A stretch of DNA of 64,000 nucleotides from Thermoplasmatota archaeon (GCA_049602735.1 JBMYRW010000001.1:19502-83501), one strand, 5' to 3'. Numbered from the stretch's first letter, positions 9,945 to 28,301 are shown. The notes: a model not told the origin generated them from the sequence alone. Made by a program: numbers and translations.

Positions 9945-9952
9945 GATCCACC

Positions 9953-13034: not shown

Positions 13035-13484
13035 ATGCGAGCATGGATGGTGGCCCTCCTGGTGGCCGCGGCACTTTCTGGTTGCGCCGATGACGATGGC
13101 GATGACGGAGCCGGCGACGCGGCCGGCGATGGCGCGGGCCTCATGGACGGCGATGACATGGGCGGCGACGGCATGGAGCGCCAAGTGGTACAGGTGACCG
13201 TGAGCGCCGAGGGCATCTACCCGGCCAACCCGAGCCTGGCCCCGGCTCGGCTGGAGGTCCCCGCCAATGCGACGGTGGAGTTGACGTACATCAACAACGA
13301 CCCGAACCCGGTCGTCGTGCATGACTGGTTCGTGGAAGGCATCGGAGCGCAGACGGCCCAGCTCGGGAGCGGCGAGTCGACGACGATCTCCTTCGAGACG
13401 GGCGCGCCGGGCGAGTTCGCGTACTGGTGCGCCGTGGGCGACCACCGCAGCGCCGGCATGGAAGGCGTGCTCGTGGTGGCCTAG
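13035..13484 (+). CDS. type-1 (blue) copper protein, plastocyanin/halocyanin-like lipoprotein
   Basis: Signal peptide plus lipobox (AAALSGCADDD), an acidic linker, and the cupredoxin ligand pattern H...YWCAVGDHRSAGM (Cys-His-Met). Confidence 0.8.
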   Translation: MRAWMVALLVAAALSGCADDDGDDGAGDAAGDGAGLMDGDDMGGDGMERQVVQVTVSAEGIYPANPSLAPARLEVPANATVELTYINNDPNPVVVHDWFVEGIGAQTAQLGSGESTTISFETGAPGEFAYWCAVGDHRSAGMEGVLVVA

Positions 13485-13538
13485 GCGCCCCGGCCCACAG
13501 GCGAACCGCCAAAGCGCCGCGGCGTTCATGGGTCTGCC

Positions 13539-14204: not shown

Positions 14205-14209
14205 GCGGC

Positions 14210-15604
14210 TTAGGCGACCGGTTCGGCCAGGGGCGTCGTCCCGGGGCGGTTGCCCTGGCATCCCTTCACCCGCTGCGCCAGCAGCCACACGCTGAAGGCT
14301 CCTGAGAGCAGGTTGCCGACCGCGAGGCCCACGTACAGCCCGGGCGCTCCGGCCAACATGGCGCCCAGCCACGCCGCTGGCAGCACCGCCACCAGCAACC
14401 GGAACAGGTTGAGGATCATGGCGTCTTTGGGGTTGCCCAGGCCGTTGGCCCCGTTGGCGGCGAGCGCTAGCCAACCCGCGGCGAAGTAGGTGACCGGGAC
14501 GATCCACAACAGGAGGCGGATCTGTTCCTGCGTCGTGGGGTCGGGGCTGAACGCCTTGGCCAAGAACGGCGCAGCGGCGGCCAGGATTGCAGCAGCCCCC
14601 AGGCCCCACAGGAAGGCGAAGCGGCGGCTGTACCGCTGCCCTTCTCCGATGCGGTCGTAGCGGCCGGCACCCAGGTTCTGGCCCATGAACGGCGTCAGCA
14701 CGCTGCCGAGCGCGTTGACACCGATGAGGGCGACCCCTTCGACGCGCGCGGCGACCCCGATGGCCGCGACCGTGGCGCTGCCTTGTTGCGCGGCGAGCCA
14801 GGTGACGAAGCTGGCGGCAAGCGGTGTCAGCAGACTCGTGAACGCGGCGGGCACCGCGATGACGAGAATCGCTTTCCAACTGGCCGGCAACTGGCGCCAG
14901 TCCGGCGGGCACAGCAGCTTCTCGCGGACGATGAAGGTCCACGCGGCGGCCACCAGGCCGACCACGTAGGCACCGGCGGTGGCGAGCGCGGCGCCTTGGA
15001 GGCCCAGCGCGGGGAAGGGGCCGAGGCCGAAGATCAAGAGCGGGTCGAGGATGAAGTTGGCCACGGCGACGGTGATCATGATGCGCGCCGGTGTCTTGGT
15101 GTCCCCGAGGGCCCGCAGGGCGTTGTTGCCGGTCATGGGGACCACGACGAGCCCGACGCTCAGGTACCAGATCGTCATGTATTCCCGGATGAGCGGCAGC
15201 AGCTCCGGGCCGGCGCCAAGGGCACCGAAGAACACGTCGATGGTGAAGTAGCCCAGGAGGGACACCGCCACCACGGCGACCAGGGCAAGCAGGATGCTGT
15301 CGGTGGCGAGGCGGCGCACACGGCTTTCGTCGCCGCTGCCGGCTGCGCGGGCGATGACGCTGGAGGCGCCGGCGCCGAGGCCGAAGCTGACGGAGAGGAC
15401 GAAGAACACGGCCGGGAACGTGAACGCCATGGCGGCCAATTCTTGGGCGCCCAGGCGGCCGACGAAGAGTGTGTCGGCGAGGTTGATGACCAGGAAGCTG
15501 GCCATGCCCCACATCATGGGGACGGCGAGGCGACGCAGGGTGGGACCGACGGGTTCGTCGGTCATGCTCAGCCTTGCTCCCTTCTCCTTCACGTCGCCTG
15601 CCAT
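14210..15604 (-). CDS. MATE family efflux transporter
   Basis: About 12 TM helices. The N-terminus LRRLAVPMMWGMASFLVINLADTLFVGRLG is typical of MATE (NorM/DinF-like) transporters. Confidence 0.85.
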   Translation of the reverse strand: MAGDVKEKGARLSMTDEPVGPTLRRLAVPMMWGMASFLVINLADTLFVGRLGAQELAAMAFTFPAVFFVLSVSFGLGAGASSVIARAAGSGDESRVRRLATDSILLALVAVVAVSLLGYFTIDVFFGALGAGPELLPLIREYMTIWYLSVGLVVVPMTGNNALRALGDTKTPARIMITVAVANFILDPLLIFGLGPFPALGLQGAALATAGAYVVGLVAAAWTFIVREKLLCPPDWRQLPASWKAILVIAVPAAFTSLLTPLAASFVTWLAAQQGSATVAAIGVAARVEGVALIGVNALGSVLTPFMGQNLGAGRYDRIGEGQRYSRRFAFLWGLGAAAILAAAAPFLAKAFSPDPTTQEQIRLLLWIVPVTYFAAGWLALAANGANGLGNPKDAMILNLFRLLVAVLPAAWLGAMLAGAPGLYVGLAVGNLLSGAFSVWLLAQRVKGCQGNRPGTTPLAEPVA

Positions 15605-15616
15605 GGGTCCGCTCCT

Positions 15617-16234
15617 TTAGTCGTCGCCGCCCACGAGAAGATCCGCGACCGGCAGCCGCCCACTGGGCGGTGCTTCAGCGCGGCGGCGCAGGGCGTCCGG
15701 CAGCGCGGCGATGGGGCCTGGCCGGCCTACGGCGATCGCAGCGATCACGTCGTGTTCGTCATCGAGACCCAGCGCGGCGTGGGCGGCCTCGGGGTCGAGG
15801 CCACCCATCGGGCGCGTCACCAGTCCATGCGCCTGGGCCTCCAGCAGCAGTTGCATGGTGGCGGAGCCTGTGTCGAACCAGGCGTGGCGGTTGGCCTGGC
15901 CGGCGAGCCCCATCTTGCCGGCGTAGCTGTGGTCGCTCAGGGTGGTCTTGGCGACGATCCAGATGATGGCCGGGGCATCGTCGCTCCAGGCCCGGTTGCC
16001 GGCCATGAGGGTGGCGTCCAGGCGGTCGCGGTCCGGCCCCCGGGTGGCGATGTGGAAACGCCACGGCTGTTCGTTGAAGCTGCTGGGGGCCCAGCGTGCC
16101 GCTTCAAGGAGGCTGGCGAGGGTGCCGTCGCCCAGCGGCGTGGGGTCGAAGGCGTAGTGGCTGCGGCGGTCGGCGAAGCGGGCGTCGATGGGGGCGTCTG
16201 GCTGACGCTGGCTGGTGATCGTGGTCGTTTCCAT
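15617..16234 (-). CDS. nitroreductase family protein
   Basis: ATG at 16234 (METTTITSQ...). The motifs RRSHYAFDP, AARWAPSSFNEQPWRF and DTGSATMQLLLEAQAHGL match the family. The upstream part of the listed 314-aa ORF overlaps pirin antisense and is spurious. Confidence 0.8.
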   Translation of the reverse strand: METTTITSQRQPDAPIDARFADRRSHYAFDPTPLGDGTLASLLEAARWAPSSFNEQPWRFHIATRGPDRDRLDATLMAGNRAWSDDAPAIIWIVAKTTLSDHSYAGKMGLAGQANRHAWFDTGSATMQLLLEAQAHGLVTRPMGGLDPEAAHAALGLDDEHDVIAAIAVGRPGPIAALPDALRRRAEAPPSGRLPVADLLVGGDD

Positions 16235-16271
16235 GGTGGACTCCTTGGGAGGGATCAGGAGGGTCAGGGGG

Positions 16272-16988
16272 CTAGGGGAGTTCGAAGAGGAGGAGTTCGG
16301 CGTCGGTGGTCGCCAGCAGGGCGAGCGGCTCGTCGTGGCTGCCGGCGGGTGGCAGGGCGGCACCGTCGCCGGGTCCGAGGGGCGTGCCGTCCAGTTCGAG
16401 GCTGCCGCGGGCGACATGGATCCAGAGGTGACGGCCCGGCGTGGGGGCATACGTCGTCTGCTGCCCGGCGTCGAGGCGCCCCGCGATGATCGCGGCGTCG
16501 GCGTTGAGGGCGATGCCTCCTTGCTGGCCGTCTGCGCTGGCGACCACTTGGACGCCGGCATCGAGGTCGAACCTTCGCTGGTCGTATCCAGGCTCCAGGC
16601 CGGCAGCCGCAGGTTGGATCCAGATCTGCAGGAACTCCGTGTCCTCGTCGGCGCCGCTCATCTCCGCGTGCACGACGCCGGTGCCGGCAGTCATGCGTTG
16701 GACGTCCCCCGGTTCCAGGGTGTGCTCGTTGCCCATGGAGTCCCGGTGGCTCAGGGCGCCGCGCAGCACGTAGCTCACGATCTCCATGTCCCGGTGGGGG
16801 TGGGCGCCGAAGCCGGTGCCGGGCCGGATGGTGTCCTGGTTGATGACGCGAAGGTTGCGGTGGCCGCGCCAGTCGTCATCGTGGTAGCCGGCGAAGCTGA
16901 ACGTGTGGTAGGTGTCGAGCCAGCCGTGGTCGGCGTGGCCGCGTTCGTGGCTGCGCCGGATGCGCAGGGGTGTCCGGAGGCTGTTCAA
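16272..16988 (-). CDS. pirin family protein
   Basis: RGHADHGWLDTYHTFSFAGY...GFGAHPHRDMEIVSYVLRGAL is the cupin metal-binding pattern of pirins. Confidence 0.9.
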   Translation of the reverse strand: MNSLRTPLRIRRSHERGHADHGWLDTYHTFSFAGYHDDDWRGHRNLRVINQDTIRPGTGFGAHPHRDMEIVSYVLRGALSHRDSMGNEHTLEPGDVQRMTAGTGVVHAEMSGADEDTEFLQIWIQPAAAGLEPGYDQRRFDLDAGVQVVASADGQQGGIALNADAAIIAGRLDAGQQTTYAPTPGRHLWIHVARGSLELDGTPLGPGDGAALPPAGSHDEPLALLATTDAELLLFELP

Positions 16989-17374
16989 GCGGTGGCTCCT
17001 GCGACGGGGCGGCCCAGGAGGCCCTCGGGGCGCTGCGTCCAGGCGAGCACGCCGGCCAGTGTACCGAGCACGAGGGGGACCGCGAAGTCGCCGTTCACCA
17101 GGTGGGTGCCCACGGCGCCCAGCATCAGGAGGGCGAGGCCGTCGGCGGCCCAGAACCGGGTGCGGTTCACCAGGAGGCCGATGGCGCCGGCGACCTCGAG
17201 GGCCCCGATGACGGTCAGGGCCCAGGAGGGGACGCCAAGATCGTCCTCGAGGGGGCCGACGACGGCTTCGTTGCCGATCACCTTGTTGATGCCGGCTCCC
17301 AAGAACGCGAAGGCGAGGAGGGCGGTCAGAACCCAGAGTCCGATCAGCTTGCTACGGGAGGTTGCTCCTTCCAT
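16985..17374 (-). CDS. DoxX family membrane protein
   Basis: ATG at 17374 (MEGATSRSKLIGLWVLTALLAFAFLGAGINK...). It has four TM helices, and its stop overlaps the pirin start by 4 nt. Confidence 0.7.
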   Translation of the reverse strand: MEGATSRSKLIGLWVLTALLAFAFLGAGINKVIGNEAVVGPLEDDLGVPSWALTVIGALEVAGAIGLLVNRTRFWAADGLALLMLGAVGTHLVNGDFAVPLVLGTLAGVLAWTQRPEGLLGRPVAGATA

Positions 17375-17375
17375 G

Positions 17376-17482
17376 GGACCCACTATCAATGCAGGAGTAT
17401 TAGAGACTCCAGTCCCGCGGCGCGAAGCCTCTACGAACGCCCGGACTGATCCATTGATATAGACCAAGGACCCACTACGAAC
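17376..17482. promoter_or_regulatory. divergent doxX / hxlR control region with nested repeats
   Basis: Direct repeat GGACCCACTA at 17376-17385 and 17468-17477. Inverted repeat ATCAATG (17385-17391) / CATTGAT (17452-17458). CTACGAAC occurs at 17431-17438 and 17475-17482. The spacer is AT-richer than its surroundings. Confidence 0.35.
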
Positions 17483-17491
17483 CGAGTAGCA

Positions 17492-17866
17492 ATGGGTTCA
17501 CCCTGCGAGACCACGGACGGCGGCTGCCAGATCGGCGAACTGTTCCAGCTGCTGGGGCGCCCCCACATGCTCGACATCACCCACATCCTGTTCCGCGAGG
17601 CCGACGGGCCCGTCCGCTTCGTCGACCTCCAGAAACGCCTCGGCCTGTCCCCCAACACCTTGAGCGCCCGGCTCAAAGCGCTCGTGGAGGCCGGTCTCGT
17701 CACGCGCACCGCGTACAACGAGATCCCGCCCCGCGTCGACTACGAGGCGACCGCCAAGGCCCGCGACCTCTGCACCGTCTTCGCCGCGCTGCACGAATGG
17801 AGCAGCAAACACGACCTGCGTCCCGAGCCGACGGCGGAAGCGGTGACTGTGTTGGCAAAGGCATAG
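17492..17866 (+). CDS. HxlR family winged-helix transcriptional regulator
   Basis: CQIGELFQLLGRPHMLDITHIL...FVDLQKRLGLSPNTLSARLKALVEAGLVTRTAYNEIPPRVDYEAT is the canonical HxlR (DUF24) pattern. Confidence 0.85.
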   Translation: MGSPCETTDGGCQIGELFQLLGRPHMLDITHILFREADGPVRFVDLQKRLGLSPNTLSARLKALVEAGLVTRTAYNEIPPRVDYEATAKARDLCTVFAALHEWSSKHDLRPEPTAEAVTVLAKA

Positions 17867-17943
17867 CCATCGAATTCTCCGTACTTGCCCACCGAACCGG
17901 CGCCAAATTCAACATCAATGAATGCAATGCCCTTCGAAGGAGT

Positions 17944-20900
17944 TCACGGGGTTGCTGGGATATCGGGAATAGCCGATTTCGGTTGAGAACCAACCGCCCT
18001 CGATGTCTCCGCAGTCTCGATTCCGTTCAGTGGTGGTGCCTCCTTCGCATCACCCAGCGATGGGGAATCCTCTAACCCTTTGGCAGCCCCCGATTCCCCC
18101 AGGCCATGTGGAGCTGGTTCAGACGGGCCAACATTTGCAAGATCCAGAAGCCGATAGTCACCTGGCACAACATGCACGGGTCGTTGCAATCCAGGCGGCA
18201 AGACCCCTTCCAATTCAGCTAGACTATGCAGGCCTTGCAACACTTCACCGTAAGTCCCCTGCGATGCGACTCGTATCGTCGTGGCCGACCCAGGATCTGA
18301 AAGCAATTGACGCGCAAATGCATCACTTGATCGGACGTCTCTAGTGATTAAGGCCCGGTCGCCAACGAAACCCATGATCGGAAGCCGCCACAGTTGGTGC
18401 CCCGCACCGAACCGGCGTAGCTGAGGCGCATCATCACGAAGCGCTGGTACGTCCATGGCAGCATTCAGTAGCAAACCCAAGTAGTACGTTCTGTTTCGAT
18501 TGACATGCTGGACGATTGGATGCTCGGCCCCGCCCCCTTGCGCCACCTGATCGCGCAAAGAAGCAACCCCCATCAATAATGATTGATCAAGAATGTCGGG
18601 GGCAAAGAATGACATGAAATCCAGAATGTTCGTTGCGTCAAACAATGTACCCGGCGAACGTGGCACAGACGTAATATGTTCCAAGTAGATTTCCTTTACA
18701 TCTTCTACGTGCGATAATACCAAGAAATTCTCGTACACCGTCCATTTCAGGAGGTTCGTGGCGCGGGAAAGAAGTGGCGAGATCTGATCGATTGTGCGAA
18801 CAAGCGCTGTCTCGAGGCTCTTGATCGTCGCCTGAGTCTTTTTCACTTGATTGTTGATGCGAGACTCGGCTGCCGCCATGACCGCTGATGCCTCTTGGGT
18901 TGCATCCGTCGTGGATGATGCGACCGCTGAGCTGCTCAACGCCTGCGCAAACTGCGCTGTTGTGCTGGCTCTGGAGCTGCTGTGGGCGACGGCCACGGAG
19001 GCCACGAACGGAATGCTGGCGCCGGCGGTCACGGCAGTCGAACTCACGTTGGTTTCCGTGCTGGCATTGGTCCGATTTGCCATGTGACTGGCTTCGGACA
19101 GCAGGGATTCAACGGTGTTCGCTTGGTGAGCTGCCTGTTCTGCCGTCGACACAATATCTTCGATTGCCTGCGCTGAAACCTGTTCCGCGCGAGACTTGAT
19201 CCGCTCAACAGTATCCTTCGACTCGCGAAGGACCTGCCCCGGCGCGAGGCTCTGTAGGTTGGCAAGGCTACCCAAGCTGTAGCCTACAAACGCCCATTCC
19301 TGCCTGACCGTCACCAGATACCGGCGACGGGGCAGCCCCTCCTCCGAAACAGGGCTGACCCGGGTCATCTTCAGCCTCCTGACGGTACGCGTTCGACCGG
19401 CCCCGTTCCCATCGGAAAGATCCAGCTGCGGCAACAAGGGACTCGAGCAAGCATAGTTGAGGCGCAAGAGGTCGTCGTACAACGAAGGTGAGAATACACT
19501 GGGCAATCGCGGCAGTGGATCGACCGCTGCATGGCTTTCAAGAGGCCCTAGCTGATCCACAACGATCGAAACAAAGGCATGTTGGGATTCTTCGGGAATC
19601 TTGAAAACCGCCTTGACGAGACCAGATGCGAGTCGGCCAGCTTCGATCACGCCCGTTGAAGCAGAGGTATTCCCTCGCGGGAACAGCAGGATCGCGATTC
19701 CTCCAGCGTTGGTGCGGGTGCGGTCGACGAGACGCTCATGCTCATCGTAGAGCCGAACCGGGTGTCCTGAAACGGCATTTCCGTCCTGGTCGGATACGAC
19801 CGCCAAGGCCATCTTTGTCCGCCGCCCATCACTGATTTCGTTGCCACGCCCAGCCAATCTGGGATTCGTATCCAACATGCTGCGCATGCGCGAATCGGAA
19901 TCAGAAAAGCCCTGCTCGGCGGCCTTCCTTACGCCGGGGGATGCGAACTCATCATCGATGGCGGCAACGGCCGCCTCTTGGTCACGGACCGCCTGGTCCA
20001 TCGCGTTCTGCAGATCTCGCTCCATTGCTTCCGCGGCCTCCGCCGACACGTTGGCCAGAGCCTCCGCAAGTTCTTCTTCATGCAGAGCTTGGAGCCGCAC
20101 GATACGTTCTTCGAGGTCCTGTGATCCCTCCAGCCGTATTTGATCGACGGCTGCCTGACGAACCCCCGCCTCTCGGGCCTTAAGCCCACCAAGATCGCGG
20201 TCCAGATTCAGGGGGGATTCTTCAACAACGCGGATGATCTGCGCCTGATATTCCGCTGTCTTGGCTCTAAGTTTGTCACTCCTTATGATAACTTGCGAAA
20301 TTTGGCGCTCGGCCTCGGCGACTTCAGCCCGCACCGAATCCTCGAGTTGCCGATCAGCGCTGGCTTCATCTCGGAACCCTTGCGACTCGATTTCCATTTG
20401 TTCCGCTTCCGCCTTCGACTGATCGATTTGGTCCTGGACCACCCCATATTGTCGCTCTTCAGCAACAACCAATTTCTCATATCGTACGGCCTCGTTCTTT
20501 GCCTCATCCTGGTCCGCGATTGCCTTGCGCAGCGCCTCCTTTTTCTTGGCCAACGTGCCGCGGAGGTTAGCGAGCTCCGCCTGGTGAGCCTGAGCTTCTT
20601 GCGCCGAGGAACCCGATTCTCGTTCCAATTCCCTTGCCTGCGCAGCCAGGTTCTCGGCATCCAACCTGGCCTTCGCGCGTGTCGCATCATGGCCGGCCCA
20701 GATCGATTGGTAGGCAGGATCCTTGTAGAGCCAGTTGCGCTTGTAGGAGGAAATTTTGTTATCGGGAATGCCATGCGATTTTTTGATGTCTGGATAGCTC
20801 CCTGCCCTCAAGCTCCACTTCCGACCTTTGGGCTTTCCTCGATTATAGCTTACGTGCTCAAAGAAAATCCATTCCCCTTCCGAAATACGCACCGCCGAGG

Positions 20901-21000
20901 CACGGTCGTTGAACGCTCTGCCGACCCATGACGAATCTGAATTGGAAGAAATGGATTGCCCCTTAAAATTTCGCTTCTCCCATAGGGTAACAATGCTCAT
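17944..21000 (-). CDS. uncharacterised 1018-aa protein: beta/gamma-crystallin-like domain, long coiled coil, beta-sandwich module and large conserved C-terminal core
   Basis: A long uninterrupted ORF in lower-GC DNA. Residues 3-88 carry two Greek-key motifs (WEKRNFKG...FNDRASAV; FFEHVSYNRG...PDNKISSY). Residues ~105-355 are heptad-like and Ala/Glu/Gln/Arg-rich. Residues 398-441 (VVSDQDGNAVSGHPVRLYD...TRTNAGGIAILLF) look like a CarboxypepD_reg-type sandwich. Residues ~555-925 are paralogous to the 885-aa ORF. Confidence 0.75.
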   Translation of the reverse strand: MSIVTLWEKRNFKGQSISSNSDSSWVGRAFNDRASAVRISEGEWIFFEHVSYNRGKPKGRKWSLRAGSYPDIKKSHGIPDNKISSYKRNWLYKDPAYQSIWAGHDATRAKARLDAENLAAQARELERESGSSAQEAQAHQAELANLRGTLAKKKEALRKAIADQDEAKNEAVRYEKLVVAEERQYGVVQDQIDQSKAEAEQMEIESQGFRDEASADRQLEDSVRAEVAEAERQISQVIIRSDKLRAKTAEYQAQIIRVVEESPLNLDRDLGGLKAREAGVRQAAVDQIRLEGSQDLEERIVRLQALHEEELAEALANVSAEAAEAMERDLQNAMDQAVRDQEAAVAAIDDEFASPGVRKAAEQGFSDSDSRMRSMLDTNPRLAGRGNEISDGRRTKMALAVVSDQDGNAVSGHPVRLYDEHERLVDRTRTNAGGIAILLFPRGNTSASTGVIEAGRLASGLVKAVFKIPEESQHAFVSIVVDQLGPLESHAAVDPLPRLPSVFSPSLYDDLLRLNYACSSPLLPQLDLSDGNGAGRTRTVRRLKMTRVSPVSEEGLPRRRYLVTVRQEWAFVGYSLGSLANLQSLAPGQVLRESKDTVERIKSRAEQVSAQAIEDIVSTAEQAAHQANTVESLLSEASHMANRTNASTETNVSSTAVTAGASIPFVASVAVAHSSSRASTTAQFAQALSSSAVASSTTDATQEASAVMAAAESRINNQVKKTQATIKSLETALVRTIDQISPLLSRATNLLKWTVYENFLVLSHVEDVKEIYLEHITSVPRSPGTLFDATNILDFMSFFAPDILDQSLLMGVASLRDQVAQGGGAEHPIVQHVNRNRTYYLGLLLNAAMDVPALRDDAPQLRRFGAGHQLWRLPIMGFVGDRALITRDVRSSDAFARQLLSDPGSATTIRVASQGTYGEVLQGLHSLAELEGVLPPGLQRPVHVVPGDYRLLDLANVGPSEPAPHGLGESGAAKGLEDSPSLGDAKEAPPLNGIETAETSRAVGSQPKSAIPDIPATP

Positions 21001-22211
21001 CGTACATCCTTCCCGTTCTGCTGTAGTTGGGTTTTCGCATCTGCCTCCTGTGTTTGGCCGGCAATGAGCTTCGTCGCTCCTTGATGGAACTCGGGCTCCG
21101 CTCGGGAAGTGTTTGCCAAGGAGGCGGCCTGTTGGACCGATTTCCGGGGCGCTGCCATGGAAAGGAACGCCAGCTCCGGAATCGAATTCAAAGGAAGGTC
21201 CGGCAGTTCCATTTCATCGATGCTCTCGATCCGTTGGGCTTGTTTCTCGTCCGCCTCCATCGCCTCCAGGTACGCAAGCTCTTCAGGCGTTGGCACCAAA
21301 GCTTCGTCCAATCGAATTTCAGCGGCCTGTTGGGCCTCAGCTACTGCGTGTTCTGTTCTTCTTTCTGCGAACTCTTTGAATTCCCCCACCGTTACCTTGT
21401 TGGCTGCGGCAGCCTTGCGCCGTGCCTGCCCGATGGCTGATTCACGTAGAGCTTGTGCCTGGGAAGCGAAGTCCTTCAGGGCTTCTTCCCGCAGCGTCGA
21501 AATTCGCTCCACTTCGGCCGCCTTTGCATCGGCGAGCTCCCGCCCATGCAGCTGTTGGGCCTCGAGAAGGTGCCTTCTGCGATGTCGCGCGGCCTCTCGG
21601 ATGGTCTCTGCGAGTTTTGCACTGGACTCTGTTTCAAGGGAAGCCGCATGCGCCAGCTCAGAATTGGCGTGGTCCAACCGTGACCGCTCGAACCGAATCT
21701 CTTCCTTCGCCGCCTGAAGCGTAGCCGATGCTGCACTCCGTTCGGTTTGGGCCGCCTTTTTTTTGGTAGCAGCATCAAACCTTTGTTTGGACGCGAGGCC
21801 TAGGGTTTCCTTGGATCGCTCCACCCTTTTGCGGAGGATTTCATACTCCTGCTTGAGCCGCGATGCTTGCGCATTGGCGTCGCGAGCGGTCTGCTGCTGA
21901 ATCGAGAGCTCCGCATCAAATTTTGTCAATTCGTCCCGGGCAATCTCAACTTCCTGCCTCAGCTCGTCGAGGCGATCTGCATCAACAAGGCTGGCCCTAG
22001 CAGCATCGATTTTTTCGCGATGGGATTGAGCATTCTTTCGGTATTGTTCCAACTTTTTTTGATGTTCCGTCTCGGCTGCACCATGCGCGCTTCTTGCCCT
22101 TCGCTCATCGTTCGAACGAATCGCTGCGTCCATCTCGTCGCTGTAGAAACCGTAGATGGACCAACCATCGCTCGATGTTTTCACGGCAGCACCAGGCGCT
22201 ACAGCACCCAC
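20997..22211 (-). CDS. uncharacterised coiled-coil protein (404 aa from GTG 22211; alternative ATG at 22133)
   Basis: Almost entirely Glu/Ala/Arg/Gln/Lys-rich heptad-like sequence with no other motif. Its TGA stop overlaps the ATG of the 1018-aa gene (ATGA at 20997-21000). The start is uncertain because the first in-frame start codon is GTG. Confidence 0.65.
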   Translation of the reverse strand: MGAVAPGAAVKTSSDGWSIYGFYSDEMDAAIRSNDERRARSAHGAAETEHQKKLEQYRKNAQSHREKIDAARASLVDADRLDELRQEVEIARDELTKFDAELSIQQQTARDANAQASRLKQEYEILRKRVERSKETLGLASKQRFDAATKKKAAQTERSAASATLQAAKEEIRFERSRLDHANSELAHAASLETESSAKLAETIREAARHRRRHLLEAQQLHGRELADAKAAEVERISTLREEALKDFASQAQALRESAIGQARRKAAAANKVTVGEFKEFAERRTEHAVAEAQQAAEIRLDEALVPTPEELAYLEAMEADEKQAQRIESIDEMELPDLPLNSIPELAFLSMAAPRKSVQQAASLANTSRAEPEFHQGATKLIAGQTQEADAKTQLQQNGKDVR

Positions 22212-22296
22212 GGACCATTTAGCTTCATCGGCCCAAGTTGCAAGTCGGGATGGTTGCCGCGATAAATCACGGGAACTGCAGCAACTGATGCTAATC

Positions 22297-22422
22297 CCAA
22301 GATCGTTTGGCTGACGCCTCTGTTGTCATGATCTTGGAGTGGCGAGGATTGGATAGAAGCGCTCCGTAAATCTCTTCAATGGCGCGGCCTTTCTAGGGCT
22401 GACGAAAAGAGCTGTTCGTCAG
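22297..22422. promoter_or_regulatory. divergent control region of the island genes with two perfect 8-bp inverted repeats
   Basis: CCAAGATC (22297-22304) / GATCTTGG (22330-22337) with a 25-nt spacer. CTGACGAA (22399-22406) / TTCGTCAG (22415-22422) with an 8-nt spacer, ending 15 nt before ATG 22437. A/T-rich TATA-like elements are ATAAAT at 22262-22267 and TAAATC at 22367-22372. Confidence 0.3.
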
Positions 22423-22436
22423 GACAAGAAGAGCCC

Positions 22437-25094
22437 ATGCTTCCACCATCCAAATCCTCTGGCCGTATTGGCCGGCTGAGCAGGTCGAAGGGATTGGCCC
22501 CTGGCGATGTCCTCACGGTGCGCGGCAAGGAGCTTCGAAGCTTTGCGGGCGGTAGCCTTACGGGGTCCCAAAAGCTTCGCATCGAACGGCTGGCAGGAAC
22601 AAGGCTTGTGGCCCTGAAAATTGACGGCAGTCCAGATTATCTTGGCTCGCCCGATGACCCTGGAAGGCCGACGACCTCATTGGCCCGGGTAGCCCCAAGT
22701 GATGCCAATTCCAAGATTGCCCTATTTGAGATGGAGGGTAACCAACTTAGGCTAGGGAGGTTCCTGCCACCGGGCAACATCCCCGGGGATGCCGAGATCA
22801 GCCTGAGTCAGCCGGTCAAGAAACGGGTAGATGCGTTGCCTTCTGGCCCGAACAGGTCGATTCCCGATCCCCCCGAAACGCAACCAAAGGTCGAGATTTC
22901 AACGCAGCTGGACTCCACGGAGGGATCGTCCAATCCCTCTGCGCCCGCGGCTGACATGAATGGCTACCAAGCCATCGTTGCTGCAGTCCGGGATCATGAC
23001 GGAAACGTAGCCTCTGGCGTCCTTGCGCGTCTGCGACGTGGACAGCGGGTCCTGGACGTGACGCGAACAAACCACCAAGGCATGGCCTTGCTGCTCTTTG
23101 GGGAACCTTCAGCTGGCTTGTCTGAACCAAGCGATTCGAAGGCCCCATTTTCCATCGAAGTGATTGCCAAGGACGAAGTTGTATCGGTCGAACTAACCCA
23201 CACAGACGGAGACATTGGAATCGTGGACGTCCAGATCAATGAAACGCCCAAGTTGACGGCTACGGCACCCAATCTCTTGGCCCGGCTTCCGGCCGAACAT
23301 AGCCCCCAACTTGCATCCACGCTGATCACAATTGCTGGGGCATCCTCCCAAATGGATGAGGTCGCCGCCAAGGATCGGGGCGATCGCGTCCGCCATTTCC
23401 GTCGTCACGTGGCTGTTCCACGCATCGGCCCAGACGGTGGCCGGTTCCTCGTGATGGTGCGCCAGGACTGGACCTATCTTGGCGAGGCCTTGGGCAACAT
23501 CCACGATGCGAATGCAATCCTCCCACAGCAGACTGCGACCAGCGAACGGTCGACAAGTGATCAGCTTTCAAGCGAAGCTCTTGGAGCTACGCTGCCTTAC
23601 GATCGGATCGCAAACCGGATTGTGGGTCGGCCAAGACTCGAAGAACAGACACAGCCCACGGAGCCAGCCCTGGCGATCCACTCCCTCCCGTCGCTGGCGG
23701 GCTTCTGGGTCGCGGATGGTCGCTTCGATCTCGTCTCAAAGGAAGCAAACCAAGCGGTAAGAGACCAAGCTGAGCGACTGATTGGTGCAAAAAAGATTAA
23801 TCGTCAACCAGAGGCCCGCACGATCGAACAGCGGTCCCCTGACGCACTGCGTGCCACCAATTTCCTGAATATCGACTTGAATGAAAGGTTCTTGGTGCGT
23901 AGTGCGATCGAGACCGTGTTTCGCGTGGACGGCCTTGTGCCATCACCACAAGACGCCACAACCGTGCCAAGCTTGACGGTTCGAGAGTTGCTTGCCATGT
24001 GGCCCGTTTGGAGCGAGCTGCTCCGCTTTGATGGCGTTCTGGAGGATCAACGGTTGCTCCAGGAAATGGTGGAACGCGAGCGCGTTGACCTAGCCGTCCC
24101 GTCCGAGATTGAAATCGTTCTTGATTTTGAATCCATGCTAGCGGATGGACTTGCAACGCTCCGCGTGGGGCAGGACACCGCAAAGGCCGTACTTCCAGCC
24201 GGAAAAGGTACGGTGACGATCAGCGTCCAGAATCCCTCCAACCGCTCTCGGCGAGACATCAGGGAATTTGTACTGGAACTAAGCCTGGAAGTTCCATCGA
24301 CGTCCATCAGTATTGATGGAGATCAGGACAACGCCGATCTTCGGGAGCTCTTGGAGCGCGTGCATCGGTCCAGCAGGGATGATCTGCTCGATCAGGCCAG
24401 CATCACAGTTTCCCCAGTGGCAGCACATTTCCAATCGAAGGAAGGCACCCTAGAATCCATCGATTCGATTGAGGTGGTCGGATCGCGGTTCCTAAGAGGC
24501 CCCGAGAAGCGCCGCTGGACCTTCGACGTAACTCCCGAGAAAATTGATGCGCGGAAAGTGAATTCCATCGTTGACCACATCCTAGACCAGCAAGGGAGGT
24601 ACTTGCGAACAGCCCTGGCGGCGGCTTGGAAGTTCCCGGAATGGCGCCAACGCCTTCAATCTCTCTTGGGAATCGATGCCGATGATTCCGTATGGGAGTC
24701 GAAATTGATTGGCTTTGATGGCGCGTCGGCCTTGTACGTGGTTCCCGCCCACCAGGACGATGCCTTCGCGAAGGAGCTCCTTCGTGACCCTGGATCGGCC
24801 ATGCTTGTTCATCTCCCTACGGGGTCGACGTTTACCCAAACCAGCCCGATTGATGTGGAGGCGCCTTCCGACCTCCATGCGGAAGCCGATGGCGTCAAGC
24901 AGGGCCGCTCTTTGGAACTGGCCCGGTCGATGTTGCAACAACTAGGCGTTGATGCCACACTGGCGGAACTGATGCCAAAGGATCCAAACCTTTCTCCAGA
25001 TTCTGTCGATCGTCCTGGCCGAACGGAGGACCTGACGAAAACCACCGAAACCATCGTGAAAAAACTCCATGAGCAATCGAGCCAGATTGCCTAG
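22437..25094 (+). CDS. uncharacterised 885-aa protein, paralogue of the C-terminal two-thirds of the 1018-aa protein
   Basis: It shares colinear motifs with the 1018-aa ORF: VRDHDGNVASGVLARL...TRTNHQGMALLLF; GRFLVMVRQDWTYLGEALGNI; NFLNIDLNERFLVRSAIETV; GFDGASALYVVPAHQDDAFAKELLRDPGSA. It has a unique ~175-aa N-terminus and no signal peptide. Confidence 0.75.
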   Translation: MLPPSKSSGRIGRLSRSKGLAPGDVLTVRGKELRSFAGGSLTGSQKLRIERLAGTRLVALKIDGSPDYLGSPDDPGRPTTSLARVAPSDANSKIALFEMEGNQLRLGRFLPPGNIPGDAEISLSQPVKKRVDALPSGPNRSIPDPPETQPKVEISTQLDSTEGSSNPSAPAADMNGYQAIVAAVRDHDGNVASGVLARLRRGQRVLDVTRTNHQGMALLLFGEPSAGLSEPSDSKAPFSIEVIAKDEVVSVELTHTDGDIGIVDVQINETPKLTATAPNLLARLPAEHSPQLASTLITIAGASSQMDEVAAKDRGDRVRHFRRHVAVPRIGPDGGRFLVMVRQDWTYLGEALGNIHDANAILPQQTATSERSTSDQLSSEALGATLPYDRIANRIVGRPRLEEQTQPTEPALAIHSLPSLAGFWVADGRFDLVSKEANQAVRDQAERLIGAKKINRQPEARTIEQRSPDALRATNFLNIDLNERFLVRSAIETVFRVDGLVPSPQDATTVPSLTVRELLAMWPVWSELLRFDGVLEDQRLLQEMVERERVDLAVPSEIEIVLDFESMLADGLATLRVGQDTAKAVLPAGKGTVTISVQNPSNRSRRDIREFVLELSLEVPSTSISIDGDQDNADLRELLERVHRSSRDDLLDQASITVSPVAAHFQSKEGTLESIDSIEVVGSRFLRGPEKRRWTFDVTPEKIDARKVNSIVDHILDQQGRYLRTALAAAWKFPEWRQRLQSLLGIDADDSVWESKLIGFDGASALYVVPAHQDDAFAKELLRDPGSAMLVHLPTGSTFTQTSPIDVEAPSDLHAEADGVKQGRSLELARSMLQQLGVDATLAELMPKDPNLSPDSVDRPGRTEDLTKTTETIVKKLHEQSSQIA

Positions 25095-25133
25095 TGCATC
25101 AGGGTATTGCAGCGTTCTCGAGGTAGATCTCAC

Positions 25134-26669
25134 CTAGCGACTACTGTCGGTGGAGTTCGCCGGCCCCAACGCCCGTAGCCGCTCCGCCAGGATGCCCATG
25201 GCGGTCGCCGTCTCCAGGCTGACCGAGGCGCCGGTGATCTCGTAGTGGGCGGGGCAGGCTTCCAGGACGTGGCGGGGTAGCCCGCGCGGGCCGAGGCCCA
25301 TGAGCACGCAGAGTCGTCCATGCACCTCTTTGGCCCTCTCCAGGGTCTCCAGGCGCTCTGGGTCCGGCTTGGGCGTCGTCGCCACCGGCCAACCGGGCAG
25401 GTCGTCCAGGGTCAACTCGTCCACGGCGCTCACCCGGCCGGCCTCGAGGAGCGCTTCCAGGTGCCCGGCGCCTTCACCGATGCCGGTCTCCGTCGCTGCT
25501 GCTTCCGCGATGGCTGCCAGGTCGGCCGGGAAGGCCACCAGGAGCAGGTCGAGGTTGAACGCGGCGGCGAGCGGTGCTGCGCGGGCGACGGCACGTAGGT
25601 GAGGCAAGCCCAGGCCGCCGTCGTAGGTGTTCCAGAGGGCGAGCGTGTGGGTGCCGGCGCGACGCTCCGGGCGCCACGTCCCCTCCGTCGCCACGGCTTC
25701 CTGCTCGGGCTCCGCCGACTCGACGGGGACGGCCGGAGCGGCCAGGTCGAGGCCAGCCTTCTCGGCCGCCGCCTCCAGGCGCTTGCGCGTCGCCGGTGGC
25801 AGGTCGGCGCGCTCGGCCGCCTGAAGGAGCATGCCCTTGCCGGCGGCGTCGCCCAGCTTGTCCAGACGAGCGCCACACGCGATCAGCACGTCGGGGCGTT
25901 CGCCGCCGAGGCCGGCCACGCGGGCCAGGTCCTGCACGTCGTCCATGCGCCACACCATGCGGCGAAGCGGCTCCGCGCGAGCCTCCTCCGAGAGCGCCAT
26001 CATGGCCTCCATGGCCGGCGCGAGCGCCTCCGCACAACCACGGTGATGCAGCTGCCCCAGGGCCTCAGCGCGGGGGGCGTCCGCCATGTCCTGGATCGCC
26101 ACCATCAAACGGCCATGCTCGTGGGGCTCCGCGTGGCGAAGCACCGCCTTGAAGCCACGGGACTCGAAGCCGGCGTTGCCGCCTGCGCGTTGGAAGAGCA
26201 CCTCGCGGCCATCAGGGCCGACGTGGCCCGCTGCCGCCTCGATCGCCGACAGGGTCCATTCGCCGTCCGGAAGAGCTGCGATGCCTTCGGCGACCTCCAA
26301 GAGCAGCACGTCCCGAGTGCGGCCATGCCAACCGGCGACCGCCTTGGCCAGGTCGCCCAGCACTTCGGCGCGGCGGCCCAGACGCTCCACCATGGCGGCC
26401 CGTTGCAAGGCGCCGCGGAGGGCCTCCTCGGTCTGCTTCAGGCTCGTGTTGCCCACGGTCGCCACCTGCGCCATGGCGGTCGCGGCCCAGGAGAGGTCGC
26501 GGATCGCGTCCGCCTCGGCCAGCAATTCTACGGCCGGTCGGGTCTTCGCCTTGGCCAGACGGACCAGTTCACGGGCGCGGCTCGGGGCGTGTTCACGTGC
26601 CGGCGGCTTGCCATGGCCACCCCCTCCGCCCCCACGGCCGCGGCGGCCGGGGCTCTTGGTCTTGGCCAT
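25134..26669 (-). CDS. protein with RG-rich N-terminus, ~330-aa helical domain and C-terminal SPOUT-like (alpha/beta-knot methyltransferase-like) domain
   Basis: N-terminus MAKTKSPGRRGRGGGGGGHGK. The C-terminal HTLALWNTYDGGLGLPHLRAVARAAPLAAAFNLDLLLV and RLCVLMGLGPRGLPRHVLEACPAHYEITGASVSLETATAMGILAERL resemble SPOUT motifs 1-3. The start overlaps the upstream stop by 1 nt (TGATG). Confidence 0.5.
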   Translation of the reverse strand: MAKTKSPGRRGRGGGGGGHGKPPAREHAPSRARELVRLAKAKTRPAVELLAEADAIRDLSWAATAMAQVATVGNTSLKQTEEALRGALQRAAMVERLGRRAEVLGDLAKAVAGWHGRTRDVLLLEVAEGIAALPDGEWTLSAIEAAAGHVGPDGREVLFQRAGGNAGFESRGFKAVLRHAEPHEHGRLMVAIQDMADAPRAEALGQLHHRGCAEALAPAMEAMMALSEEARAEPLRRMVWRMDDVQDLARVAGLGGERPDVLIACGARLDKLGDAAGKGMLLQAAERADLPPATRKRLEAAAEKAGLDLAAPAVPVESAEPEQEAVATEGTWRPERRAGTHTLALWNTYDGGLGLPHLRAVARAAPLAAAFNLDLLLVAFPADLAAIAEAAATETGIGEGAGHLEALLEAGRVSAVDELTLDDLPGWPVATTPKPDPERLETLERAKEVHGRLCVLMGLGPRGLPRHVLEACPAHYEITGASVSLETATAMGILAERLRALGPANSTDSSR

Positions 26670-27247
26670 CAGAAGGGGGTCCCGTCGGGTCGCTTGGCCG
26701 CCAGGGCCTCCGCGTACCAGACCAGTTCGTCCAGGAAGCGACCGGCGCGGCGCTCGTAGTCGCCCGTCAGGTCGTTGCCGTCGTCATCGAAGCTCGGACC
26801 CACCCGGCTCACGGCGAACATGATGCTCGGTGTGACCATGCCCAGCTCGCCCAGGATCACCCGGTAATGGGGCGCCGCGCGGACGCCGGCGAAGGGGCCT
26901 GCCGAGTAGGTGCAGATGCCGGCCGGCTTGAAGTGGAACTCCGACTGGAAGTGGTCGAGGAGGTTCTTGAGGCCGGGCGGGATGCTGTGGTTCCATTCGC
27001 CCCCGACGACGACGAAGCCGTCCGCCGCCGCCAGGACGTCGTGCGCCCGTTGCATGCCCGCCGGCGCCTCGCCTTCGGGGTACTCCTTGAACATCTTGTC
27101 CAGGAAGGGCAGCTCCAGCTCCAGGGCATCCAACAGTTCGGCCTGGTGGCCTCGGGCCTGTAGCTGGCGCACCATGAAGCGCGCCGCCTTGATGCCTTGG
27201 CGGTCCCCTCGGTTCGAACCGTACAGGACGGCGAAACGCATGCTCAT
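26669..27247 (-). CDS. NAD(P)H-dependent FMN reductase family oxidoreductase
   Basis: MSMRFAVLYGSNRGDRQG...GGEWNHSIPPGLKNLLDH is the FMN_red pattern. The start is placed at the ATG at 27247; 27241 is also possible. Confidence 0.8.
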   Translation of the reverse strand: MSMRFAVLYGSNRGDRQGIKAARFMVRQLQARGHQAELLDALELELPFLDKMFKEYPEGEAPAGMQRAHDVLAAADGFVVVGGEWNHSIPPGLKNLLDHFQSEFHFKPAGICTYSAGPFAGVRAAPHYRVILGELGMVTPSIMFAVSRVGPSFDDDGNDLTGDYERRAGRFLDELVWYAEALAAKRPDGTPF

Positions 27248-27308
27248 GGCGCGTCGGACCCGGTGGCCCCTCATAGCCGCGAGCCCAAGGGCGCCCAGGC
27301 CAAGGTGG

Positions 27309-28301
27309 TCAGTTCTCGAGGACCACGCGGTAGCGCGCCTTGCCGGCCCGCAGGTGCTCCAGCGCCGCGTTGACGTCGGTCATGGAGAACGCCTCGGTCT
27401 GCGCCTCGACGCCCCGCGCCGCCGCGAAGTCCAGCATCTCCCGGATGAGCGCCCTGCCTCCGATGGCACTTGCCGTCACGCGCTTCTGCCCGGCCAGCAA
27501 CGTACCGGCGTGGATGCCGAGGTCACTGGGCGGCACGCCGACGAAGCACAGCGTCCCGTTGGGCCGGAGGGCGCGCAGGTAGCCGTTCCAGTCCAGATCG
27601 GCGTACGCCGTGTTGATGATGAGGTCCTGCCGCGGCCCCGCCTTGGGCCCTCCGTCCGCTGAGGAGACGAAATGGTCGGCGCCGAGCGCCCGCGCCTCGT
27701 CCTCCTTGTCCGGTGAGCCCGAGTACGCGGTCACTTCGTAGCCCAGCGCCTTGGCGAACCGGACGCCCATGTGCCCCAGGCCACCGATGCCGATGACACC
27801 CACGCGGGCGCCCGGCCCGGCCAGGCGCCGCAGCGGGGAATAGACCGTGATGCCGCCGCAAAGGAGCGGTGCCGCGCCTTCGGAGGAGAGGCCGTCAGGG
27901 AGCTTGAACGCCATGCGCGCATCGGCCAGCACGTGGTCCGCGAAGCCACCGTGGTGCCCCACCGCCGTCGCCTGGTTGCCAGGACAGAGGTTCTCATCGC
28001 CGCGGGCGCAGGCATCACAGGCGTGGCAGGCGCCGCATTGCCAACCCAGTCCGACCCGGTCTCCCTCCTTCAGGCCAAGGACCGCGTCACCCGCTTCCGC
28101 CACGGTGCCCACCACTTCATGGCCCGGTACCAAGGGGTACTGGCTGCTGCGCCAGTCGTCGTCGATGAGGTGGACATCGCTGTGGCAGATGCCGCAATGG
28201 GACACCCGGATGAGCACCTCATGGGGCCCCGGCTCCGCCTCGTACGTGAACGGCTCCAGGGTCGAACCCTTGGTGGGCGCGGCGTGGGCGTGGACCTGCA
28301 T
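27309..28301 (-). CDS. zinc-dependent alcohol dehydrogenase (cinnamyl-alcohol/YahK-like, NADP-type)
   Basis: GICHSDVHLIDDDW, GHEVVGTV, structural-zinc Cys cluster CGACHACDACARGDENLC, and Rossmann GVIGIGGLGHMG. Confidence 0.9.
   Translation of the reverse strand: MQVHAHAAPTKGSTLEPFTYEAEPGPHEVLIRVSHCGICHSDVHLIDDDWRSSQYPLVPGHEVVGTVAEAGDAVLGLKEGDRVGLGWQCGACHACDACARGDENLCPGNQATAVGHHGGFADHVLADARMAFKLPDGLSSEGAAPLLCGGITVYSPLRRLAGPGARVGVIGIGGLGHMGVRFAKALGYEVTAYSGSPDKEDEARALGADHFVSSADGGPKAGPRQDLIINTAYADLDWNGYLRALRPNGTLCFVGVPPSDLGIHAGTLLAGQKRVTASAIGGRALIREMLDFAAARGVEAQTEAFSMTDVNAALEHLRAGKARYRVVLEN

Follow-up and report, generated by a model that had tools for sequence, protein, structure and literature searches.

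A low-GC three-gene island in a Thermoplasmatota archaeon and the rare cross-domain protein family to which two of its products belong

What kind of system is encoded by three long genes that depart sharply in composition from the archaeal DNA around them? The question is raised by a stretch of 64,000 nucleotides from a Thermoplasmatota archaeon (GCA_049602735.1, JBMYRW010000001.1:19502-83501; hereafter the window), which is part of a 143-kb metagenome-assembled genome (MAG) contig labelled 'Thermoplasmatota archaeon' by NCBI, and in which positions 17867-25133 form a low-GC island holding the genes that we call A, B and C. A sequence-only reading of the window had singled out this interval as a set of ORFan-like accessory genes of foreign composition, of the kind found in defence, toxin, virus-derived or cytoskeletal systems. 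The analyses described here indicate that the island is very probably a self-contained, horizontally acquired three-gene module, and that A and C, members of a rare family, are paralogues of ancient divergence.

Composition, layout and recurrence of the island

The island (17867..25133) lies between the convergent 3' ends of hxlR (+ strand) and a DUF531/SPOUT-like gene (- strand), and has a guanine-plus-cytosine (G+C) content of 56.9% (0.569), against 69.4% (0.694) in the remainder of the 64 kb. Sliding windows fall from 0.67-0.75 to 0.52-0.61 G+C between positions ~17750 and ~25250, and 1-kb segments below 0.62 G+C occur, within the window, in the island only. Relative to segments of its own size taken outside it (7.26 kb; mean 0.693, standard deviation (sd) 0.008, minimum 0.674), the island lies more than 10 sd lower. 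Nearly all of this break is found at the third codon position, where G+C (GC3) is 0.604, 0.580 and 0.615 in the three island genes, against 0.85-0.90 in seven flanking genes (including those for HxlR, DUF531, FMN reductase, alcohol dehydrogenase, MatE and Pirin).

Three long open reading frames (ORFs) fill the island in the layout C <-> B -> A: gene A (17944..21000, - strand; 1018 amino acids (aa)), gene B (20997..22211, - strand; 404 aa, start uncertain) and gene C (22437..25094, + strand; 885 aa). The stop of B and the start of A share 4 nt, the two genes being translationally coupled, while B and C diverge from a 225-bp intergenic region (22212..22436) that, as read from the sequence, presumably holds their promoters. 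The compositional break, the presence of only three ORFs with their lengths, and the tight coupling beside a divergent pair, all put forward by the sequence-only reading, are confirmed by these results.

The same trio was identified in two further metagenomic contigs at least, L043 (ENA ERZ1758309, NM_gr_Scaff05119666; trio at 3412-10519) and L044, in the same order and orientation and with the same 4-nt overlap between B and A. L043 carries archaeal markers (ribosomal S27e and S24e, Spt4, Rpb7); L044 carries no domain markers, and its A gene is truncated by the contig end. The L043 trio consists of a 934-aa gene and a divergent 361-aa coiled-coil gene, the latter overlapping by 4 nt a 1004-aa gene whose product, P0049, has the layout of A, namely crystallin, rod and core. 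Trio neighbours differ among the window, L043 and L044; those in L043 are TrmB, FHA and Toprim genes on one side and thiolase and ribosomal genes on the other. Furthermore, the trio in L043 is a high-GC island (0.78-0.83, against 0.66-0.73 in its flanks), and given that this bias is opposite in sign to that in the window, the window and L043 copies appear to derive from separate donors.

Because the trio recurs in unrelated neighbourhoods, in one of them as a high-GC island, it is best regarded as a conserved, horizontally moving module. The unrelated neighbourhoods in the two contigs, together with the patchy, solo bacterial relatives described below, also argue that it is accessory rather than core. 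The accessory character claimed earlier thus holds, and homologues of the three genes do co-occur elsewhere, a point that the sequence-only reading had left for checking. The window therefore shows deviating composition and codon usage, and its gene set is found in other neighbourhoods, whereas mobility signatures of an acquired island (integrase or transposase, tRNA target, direct repeats) were not detected: there is no tRNA in the 64-kb window, the island borders show no direct repeats beyond chance-size matches and no match to Rfam families, and Pfam and NCBIfam scans of A, B and C revealed no integrase or transposase domain.

The island proteins and the family of A and C

A comparison of A residues 399-917 with C residues 181-799 gave 28% identity at E 5e-17 (BLASTP), and this core alignment identifies the two proteins as paralogues. 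In a rough neighbour-joining (NJ) tree the three C-types group together, as do the two A-types, suggesting a duplication older than these lineages. P0039, a bacterial-type member, clusters with the archaeal A-types in the same tree.

Gene A, named 'beta/gamma crystallin-related protein' by NCBI, encodes a crystallin head, a rod of ~260 aa, a beta-sandwich and a short-form core with a hydrophobic hairpin tip. Its head (residues 4-88; 20737..20991, - strand) is a single beta/gamma-crystallin domain that belongs to PF00030 (E 4.9e-12; 46.2 bits against a gathering cut-off of 25). The best PDB sequence matches, at 3.4e-12, are 3hz2 and 2k1w, chains of 84-85 residues named 'Beta/gama crystallin family protein', which we take to be archaeal M-crystallin. 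Microbial crystallins are recognised by a Greek-key motif, (Y/F/W)xxxx(Y/F)xG, and a calcium site, (N/D)(N/D)xx(S/T)S, in both halves of the domain. In A, as read from the sequence, one half is canonical (WEKRNFKG; DNKISS) and the other degenerate (NDRASA; FEHVSYNRG), whereas both calcium motifs are intact in the L043 and L044 orthologues (NDIVSS/NDMLSS; NDRISS/NDIISS). The head of A is a genuine single domain of the type seen in archaeal 2k1w and 3hz2, with one canonical calcium motif; unlike those solved chains, which are not the heads of 1000-aa proteins, it makes up 8% of A, and neither B nor C carries one.

Behind the head, a composition-based rod finder marked residues ~96-354 (19939..20715, - strand), a stretch rich in Ala, Glu, Arg and Gln with a single Pro (residue 263) and a heptad power ratio of 14.3, as a putative helical rod or coiled coil. 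Residues ~397-481 (19558..19812, - strand) form a transthyretin/CnaB/CarboxypepD_reg-like beta-sandwich, modelled by AlphaFold2 (AF2) with a predicted local distance difference test score (pLDDT) of 82-93. Membership in this fold is indicated by the Foldseek match to 8bdw_A (CnaB2; E 3.2e-4, target-normalised template modelling score (TM-score) 0.72), followed by 3e8v (TM-score 0.67) and transthyretin-like proteins (0.5-0.6); the closest Pfam model, bMG3, remains below its threshold (E 0.022, 15.2 bits against a cut-off of 34.9). The sandwich is succeeded by a signature module (residues ~559-775; 18676..19326, - strand), in which a beta-hairpin, RRYLVTVRQEWAFVGYSLGSL, a helical hairpin of ~180 aa and a second beta-hairpin, SPLLSRATNLLKWTVYENFLV, follow one another. 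By hydropathy, the helical hairpin has a hydrophobic tip at residues 654-674 (18979..19041, - strand), STAVTAGASIPFVASVAVAHS, which is the sole hydrophobic peak of A (19-residue Kyte-Doolittle maximum 1.53) and matches in position the Gly-zipper-like tips of bacterial members and the SIPFL of the L043 orthologue. The conserved helical and alpha/beta C-terminal domain (residues ~789-931; 18208..18636, - strand; pLDDT ~90) contains the invariant columns HxNRNRxYY ... WRLPIxGFxGDR ... DPGSAT (alignment A2), and Foldseek found no fold match for it in the PDB. Every family motif is present in A: RRYLVxxRQEWxFxGxxLG, SPLLSRxxN..W..YEN, HxNRNRxYY, WRLPxxGFxGD and DxGAxT.

Gene C encodes a diverged, long-form paralogue in which the helical hairpin is shortened and the tip lost. 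It matches bacterial-type family members in tblastn searches (up to 3e-21) and the 934-aa protein of L043 by BLASTP (3e-33 across C residues 180-811). Its beta-sandwich (residues ~180-265; 22974..23231, + strand) is homologous to A residues 399-481 (BLASTP, alignment A1), and is followed by a degenerate signature module (residues ~337-495; 23445..23921, + strand), GRFLVMVRQDWTYLGEALG ... RSPDALRATNFLNIDLNERFLV, whose inter-hairpin segment measures 131 aa, against ~180 in A; that of the 934-aa protein is likewise short (114 aa) and Pro-rich. Residues ~545-800 (24069..24836, + strand; alignment A1 columns ~900-1190) comprise the long-form beta-rich insert, also found in bacterial members and absent from A, and the conserved C-terminal domain. 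The motifs of C are diverged yet alignable (RFLVMVRQDW, SPDALRATNFL, LDQQGRY, WESKLIGFDGA, DPGSAM). A word-indexed search of 5.8 billion clusters with C returned only itself, and the match between its N-terminal 180 residues and the fascin-like region of the archaeal member P0022 was not significant. The NCBI model of C is 828 aa long; the 885-aa ORF begins with MLP, and given that this N-terminus is shared with the L043 orthologue, the longer start is favoured. More generally, the public gene models of B and C look too short at the 5' end (22133-22211 and 22437-22607, respectively).

Gene B encodes a protein that is nearly all helical rod (~280-310 aa). No Pfam or NCBIfam family and no significant PADLOC or PHROG entry matched it, the PADLOC match to JetC (E 0.017) being confined to coiled coil. 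No homologue was found in the first 40 loci searched; two positional orthologues were later found in L043 (361 aa) and L044 (347 aa). Aligned with B, the L043 protein gave a Smith-Waterman score of 220, against 122 +/- 14 for composition-preserving shuffles and 141 for the reversed sequence, and the N-terminal motif W/Y..Y...M..A.R.RD is common to both. In the Logan model of B, of 378 aa, the conserved W/Y..Y...M motif lies upstream of the start. Rod lengths in two trios are 259-264 aa for A and 282-312 aa for B; a direct comparison showed B to be unrelated to the rod of A.

Beyond the trio, the core of A has ~20 homologues of 810-1060 aa (28-34% identity, E 1e-62 to 1e-89), all 'hypothetical', with sources including Chloroflexia, Thermoanaerobaculia and Longimicrobium MAGs, to which a profile search added P0022, one further archaeal member. 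An exhaustive HMMER search of 1.84 billion representatives returned 123 matches at E<=1e-3, of which 81 reached <=1e-10 and 65 reached <=1e-30; fragments are frequent among them. A pattern scan of one genome per species (185,579 species) located 16 loci, all in MAGs, spanning Thermoplasmatota, Chloroflexota, Acidobacteriota (Pyrinomonadaceae, Thermoanaerobaculia), Actinomycetota (Frankiales, Mycobacteriales), Proteobacteria and Sphingobacteriaceae, and JGI metagenomes yielded 14 more. The family is therefore rare and patchy but real, and crosses domains. In scattered soil bacteria it occurs as a solo gene; no shared neighbour was found among ~30 bacterial loci, most of which have ordinary metabolic genes around them, and one member adjoins a CHAT/TCAD7 protein. 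An unannotated 1235-aa neighbour in a Chloroflexia locus proved unrelated.

Conserved blocks run through these proteins in a fixed order. A beta-sandwich block, DGRxVPVVLAVRD...TRTN..G.ALLRF, and DNPLERLPxDF are followed by PRRYLVRxRQEWxFLGYTLGEL..V.ALDPG and a Ser/Thr/Gln-rich helix, and these in turn by a Gly-rich hydrophobic stretch, a Ser/Thr-rich helix and QVSPLLSRVTNLLRWTVYENYAVCTHVEDV. After QVSPLLSRVTNLLRWTVYENYAVCTHVEDV, an optional beta-rich insert of ~190 residues is present in the 'long form' and in C, not in A; the last blocks are DPLFRHINRNRTYYFG...LWRLPIxGFEGDR...DxGAATIVQLAAPGAYxEALQG and a Pro-rich or collagen tail. Among 47 members, accessory domains comprise collagen repeats (5, C-terminal), crystallin (4), ChW (1), Big_1 (1) and a fascin-like domain (1). 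The ChW (clostridial hydrophobic W) repeats are N-terminal in P0039, a 1309-aa protein of the representative library (Pfam E 6.4e-29).

Two other records labelled as Thermoplasmatota or Thermoplasmata also carry family members. In a second Thermoplasmatota MAG (GCA_041601615.1, JBFIHX010000013.1; 4824-15184), two paralogues occur in another layout, with no B: P0022, of 1124 aa, combines a crystallin, a fascin-like domain and the short core, and its 1598-aa paralogue three crystallins, a coiled coil and the long core. In front of each gene stands a divergent small one for a membrane protein (307 and 261 aa); these two products are mutual paralogues (5e-11), in each of which a hydrophobic segment is accompanied by a beta-rich C-terminal domain, and comparison showed them to be unrelated to B. 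This pair of family paralogues is a separate, later duplication. A solo bacterial-type member of 796 aa is found in a contig labelled 'Thermoplasmata archaeon BP_742' (JAXDQU010000064.1, 2598-4988), where its G+C equals that of its flanks (~0.70); the case is one of older transfer or of a binning error.

When A, B and C were compared with Pfam, NCBIfam, PADLOC and PHROGs, only the crystallin domain was significant; PHROG matches, to families of unknown function, were weak and compositional (E>=0.003), as were the PADLOC matches of family relatives (E>1e-4). Searching PDB sequences with A, with C and with the two family profiles gave nothing significant beyond crystallins. No family member was found in IMG/VR (2.9 million contigs, pattern search) or among 50,697 phage records (INPHARED), and one bacterial member, P0006, had no plasmid match and no tblastn match in phage records. 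Literature searches on Thermoplasmatota with crystallin and on DUF2272 returned nothing on the A/C family. These scans agree with the earlier view that the island lacks NTPase, nuclease, protease, integrase and transposase motifs, and a hydropathy scan agrees that A, B and C have no signal peptide or N-terminal hydrophobic segment. The description of the genes as ORFan-like and unassignable can be retained in part: no protein as a whole falls into a named, characterised family, but A carries a beta/gamma-crystallin domain, and A and C have homologues in a rare cross-domain family.

Structure models, a wider superfamily and known systems

From a 22-sequence alignment, two AF2 models were generated, covering A residues 390-1018 and 530-940 (mean pLDDT 66.5 and 66.7). 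Both predict a long beta-hairpin (preceded in the longer model by the sandwich, which is confident), a helix of ~60 residues, an unmodelled tip, a returning helix of ~65 residues, a second long beta-hairpin and a confident C-terminal domain (pLDDT ~90). The distance between the two hairpin motifs is near-constant in tip-bearing members, at 177-195 aa. Bacterial tips follow GGxLGGxxGxxxGPxGAxxGGLFGG, with a 19-residue Kyte-Doolittle maximum of 1.7-1.9, and that of P0049 reads GGFSIPFLGGFGGG; in all three C-types the hydrophobic tip is lost. Two Foldseek runs against the PDB, with and without the sandwich, and one against BFVD were performed. In the PDB only the N-terminal sandwich was matched, and the BFVD matches were to Ig-like domains of phage fibres and baseplates. 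Without the sandwich, the best PDB match was to TolC-family proteins (E 0.12, probability 0.08), and the next, at E >0.8, were to periplasmic adaptors, major vault protein, bluetongue VP5 and BAR domains. At the present quality of the models, the predicted core is without a detectable solved analogue.

The weak tail of the HMMER search (E 6e-7 to 1e-3) consisted of proteins of 800-1850 aa that aligned only at profile positions ~288-460, and revealed a wider superfamily with the layout hxhRQxW...GYSLGDLLYSLPLAPGQ, helix, Gly-rich patch, Ser-rich helix, then ANYNHCHALTIQYFEVLRH. An hhalign comparison of the family with 27 remote large proteins gave a probability of 99.7% (E 2.4e-25, 236 columns). 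In both groups an RQxW...G(Y)SLG beta-hairpin leads into a helix, after which come a hydrophobic patch rich in Gly and Ser, a helix rich in Ser and Thr, and a beta-hairpin, and both consist of large solo genes without signal peptides and with variable end domains. However, only this module of ~270 aa aligns significantly; the second hairpin motif is NYNHCHALT in the superfamily against SPLLSRxTNLLRW in the A/C family, and the N-terminal regions and the accessory domains (HHH_3, OmpA and DUF2272) are other than those of the A/C family. DUF2272 has been grouped with NlpC/P60/CHAP amidases (PMC10318531). Annotations in the superfamily are all 'hypothetical', cultured Belliella and Neobacillus included. 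Examples (P0100-P0138) comprise WP_089555793.1 (Psychrobacter, 'OmpA family protein'), WP_270185596.1 (Bacillus tropicus) and WP_276248611.1 (Haladaptatus, 'DUF2272 domain-containing protein'). In Pfam, NCBIfam, PHROGs and PADLOC there is no model for the core region. The superfamily is itself unstudied, and therefore lends the A/C family no function.

Using tblastn, superfamily members were located in 33 records of plasmids (from Streptomyces, Ralstonia, Bacillus and Nostoc, and in archaea from Haladaptatus), as solo genes near Fic, HTH, PIN, integrase or AAA+helicase genes. In Psychrobacter and in Haladaptatus, the plasmid has a Fic-family gene no more than ~2 kb from the superfamily member, and the records NZ_MK422609.1, NZ_CP119783.1 and NZ_CP115304.1 hold solo members of 1105-1756 aa. 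A check for a virus link of the superfamily with a back-translated NYNHCHA pattern was negative. A 20-kb record labelled 'UNVERIFIED: Bacteriophage sp.' (MT835996.1) encodes a 1459-aa superfamily member with a C-terminal DUF2272 domain, together with a sodium:solute symporter and an epimerase; no phage hallmark was seen in ten ORFs scanned, and the record is probably cellular DNA.

Several known systems resemble parts of the trio. In toad beta/gamma-CAT, the BmALP1 subunit joins beta/gamma-crystallin domains to a pore-forming aerolysin domain; its paralogue BmALP3 is a negative regulator (PMC10206775, PMC7995273). By analogy, A would combine a crystallin head with a putative membrane-active module and have in C a paralogue that may regulate it. 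Unlike A, however, beta/gamma-CAT is a secreted eukaryotic protein with an aerolysin domain, and homology is confined to the crystallin domain, so that it offers a precedent of design rather than a relative. ClyA/HlyE and the tripartite alpha-pore-forming toxins (Hbl, Nhe, AhlABC) have long helices with a hydrophobic tip and are encoded by multi-gene sets with paralogues. The trio shares these features, whereas its proteins are 2-3 times larger and contain beta-hairpins and a beta-sandwich; the best profile match to HlyE (1qoy) had a non-significant E of 0.73, and neither PDB Foldseek run matched a toxin of this type. Sulfolobus SlaB (8qox_B) is, like A, archaeal, and in both a long helix comes after the beta-sandwich domain(s). 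SlaB is an exported protein whose C terminus bears a membrane helix. In contrast, A has no signal peptide and no terminal transmembrane (TM) helix, and a helical hairpin instead of a single helix; a SlaB-like fold was rejected, given that the match (E 2e-5) has a TM-score of 0.13-0.18 and so reflects a similar order of elements.

TolC-family factors (VceC, SilC, OprN) and periplasmic adaptors (EmrA, HlyD) show the same succession of beta-hairpin, long helical hairpin and beta-hairpin. Their matches are not significant (E 0.12-9, probability <=0.08), and the island proteins lack a signal peptide or N-terminal hydrophobic segment; also, the hairpins, being charged on both faces, are not predicted to be strands of a membrane barrel. 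Among PADLOC-DB 2.0 systems A and C have no match and B has only that to JetC, and no viral family was recovered from PHROGs, IMG/VR or INPHARED. Pieces of known families are thus limited to the crystallin domain and the transthyretin-like sandwich. Since its closest relatives are themselves uncharacterised, we regard the trio as new in sequence and structure space, although its function may fall into a known class, such as that of pore-forming toxins.

Proposed mechanism and alternatives

No catalytic domain was found in any library scanned (Pfam, PADLOC, NCBIfam, PHROGs), and the accessory domains are of binding or adhesion type (crystallin, ChW, Big_1 and fascin-like, with OmpA, HHH_3 and DUF2272 in remote relatives). 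We infer that the likeliest role would be that of an accessory, conflict-type or envelope-directed membrane-active device, toxin- or pore-like, rather than a housekeeping one. As a possible, if somewhat doubtful, mechanism we suggest a non-enzymatic, elongated, oligomeric rod or spike that would engage membranes through the tip of A. Because A retains the hydrophobic tip, it would be the membrane-engaging subunit, its crystallin head, which probably binds calcium, being carried on the rod of ~260 residues. The rod of B would pair with that of A, given their similar length and the translational coupling of the genes, and C, which has lost the tip and kept the long-form insert, would act as a non-inserting partner or regulator. 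The collagen tails of some members suggest a trimeric core, in which three hairpins would form a rod-like bundle of ~10 nm that has its three hydrophobic tips at the same end, a geometry suited to membrane insertion or gripping. The whole statement that we favour, an acquired module combined with an elongated, membrane-active rod or spike, is put forward tentatively. A broader reading, which we consider doubtful, is that the signature module defines an unrecognised cross-domain class of large, signal-peptide-less, membrane-inserting or -penetrating proteins with a new fold; A would then be a tip-bearing, calcium-sensing subunit, C a tip-less regulator or completer, and B a coiled-coil strut or chaperone.

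A number of observations weigh against the favoured statement. The helices of the AF2 models reach a pLDDT of only 55-69 and the tip is unmodelled, while the tip of A is weakly hydrophobic and those of the archaeal proteins P0022, P0047 and P0049 less so. No significant similarity to pore-formers was detected in sequence or fold (ClyA E 0.73; best Foldseek E 0.12), and the A/C proteins have no export signal although many of their accessory domains are of extracellular type. The NJ tree behind the ancient A/C divergence has no support values and places the C-types on long branches. Finally, the pairing of B with A and an interaction of A with C are purely inferred.

Other explanations were weighed against the same data. 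An envelope or surface assembly (a stalk, fibre, adhesin or coat-like layer, likened to an S-layer stalk or spore-coat protein), in which the hairpin would anchor or space the sandwich and crystallin domains, appears unlikely. It would account for the extracellular structural or adhesive accessory domains (collagen, ChW, Big_1 and crystallin, with OmpA in remote relatives) and for the BFVD matches to phage fibre and baseplate domains. The SlaB match is also the top Foldseek match of the A core, extending over 428 columns, but with a root-mean-square deviation of 59 A the fold is not superposable. Furthermore, the family has no signal peptide, N-terminal anchor or C-terminal TM helix, A beginning directly with its crystallin domain, and a rare, patchy, horizontally transferred spread would be unusual for a main envelope component. 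The occurrence of two helical rods of 260-310 residues in one operon, with neither export signals nor enzymatic domains, could instead point to an intracellular coiled-coil scaffold or membrane skeleton, in which A and B would form filaments or struts, the crystallin head would respond to calcium and C would be accessory. This is quite unlikely: the bacterial solo homologues lack both the long N-terminal rod and B, suggesting that in archaea the rod was added to a core of other activity, and the island-like composition and variable location oppose a core cytoskeletal role.

We regard as improbable a role in anti-virus defence by abortive infection, in which infection would be sensed through the binding domains and the membrane be damaged by the hairpin module. 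In its favour, the module is of foreign composition, has moved horizontally and is accessory in nature, remote relatives lie on plasmids near Fic, PIN, HTH, integrase and AAA+helicase genes, and one bacterial member stands beside a CHAT/TCAD7 protein; however, neither A, B and C nor their relatives have a significant PADLOC match, bacterial loci lie mostly among metabolic genes with no recurring defence gene nearby, and no nuclease, NTPase or other typical defence sensor domain was found. That the trio descends from a virus or other mobile element, in which A and C once were virion or fibre proteins, is highly improbable. No family member occurs in the viral contigs and phage records searched, integrase, capsid, terminase and portal genes, tRNAs and border repeats are missing, and the one 'phage' record with a remote relative carries transporter and epimerase genes, all of which outweighs the foreign composition, the large, structural-looking proteins with an Ig-like sandwich and collagen tails, and weak PHROG tape-measure matches to the Gly-rich tip of one bacterial member. 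Of the suggestions made by the sequence-only reading, those of a defence role and a viral derivation have thus found no support in PADLOC, PHROGs or IMG/VR, although an unrecognised defence role is conceivable, and the toxin-like and the cytoskeletal or structural ones may apply. Lastly, the sharp compositional step at both borders could be taken as a sign of foreign DNA misjoined into an archaeal contig during assembly or binning, which is scarcely credible: the same region, with the same junctions and flanks, is present in the 143-kb NCBI MAG contig and in an independent Logan assembly (59-kb contig, SRR27204701), the borders sit in two short intergenic gaps between convergent genes (77 bp to hxlR and 39 bp to DUF531), and in L043 the trio stands between archaeal genes.

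In the window, the flanks of the island are of redox and detoxification character, with a succinate dehydrogenase operon and genes for cupredoxin, GST, MatE, nitroreductase, pirin, DoxX and HxlR before it (7000-17500) and genes for DUF531, FMN reductase and a Zn-dependent alcohol dehydrogenase after it (25134-28301). None of these flanking genes recurs beside the other trios, and, in the search for an empty site with hxlR next to DUF531, exact look-up of the flanking proteins retrieved copies from the same sample only. A 926-aa ORF at 12732-15512 (- strand) is an antisense shadow of the MatE gene (14210-15604) and not a gene; its GC1 of 0.88 and GC3 of 0.62 are the reverse of real genes in the window.

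If the proposal holds, the trio would offer a way into a superfamily of very large, so far unstudied proteins in soil bacteria, plasmids and archaea, to which this analysis linked no domain model, solved structure or paper. What is a solo protein in bacteria is divided in the archaeal trio among two paralogues, one with and one without the tip, and a separate rod, and these differentiated parts lead to direct hypotheses on which element does what. Given the crossing between bacteria and archaea and the oppositely biased islands, the trio also marks recent gene flow into high-GC Thermoplasmatota. Should the proteins be membrane-active, they would represent a new structural class of pore-forming or membrane-penetrating proteins; should they be structural, a new archaeal rod or filament system.

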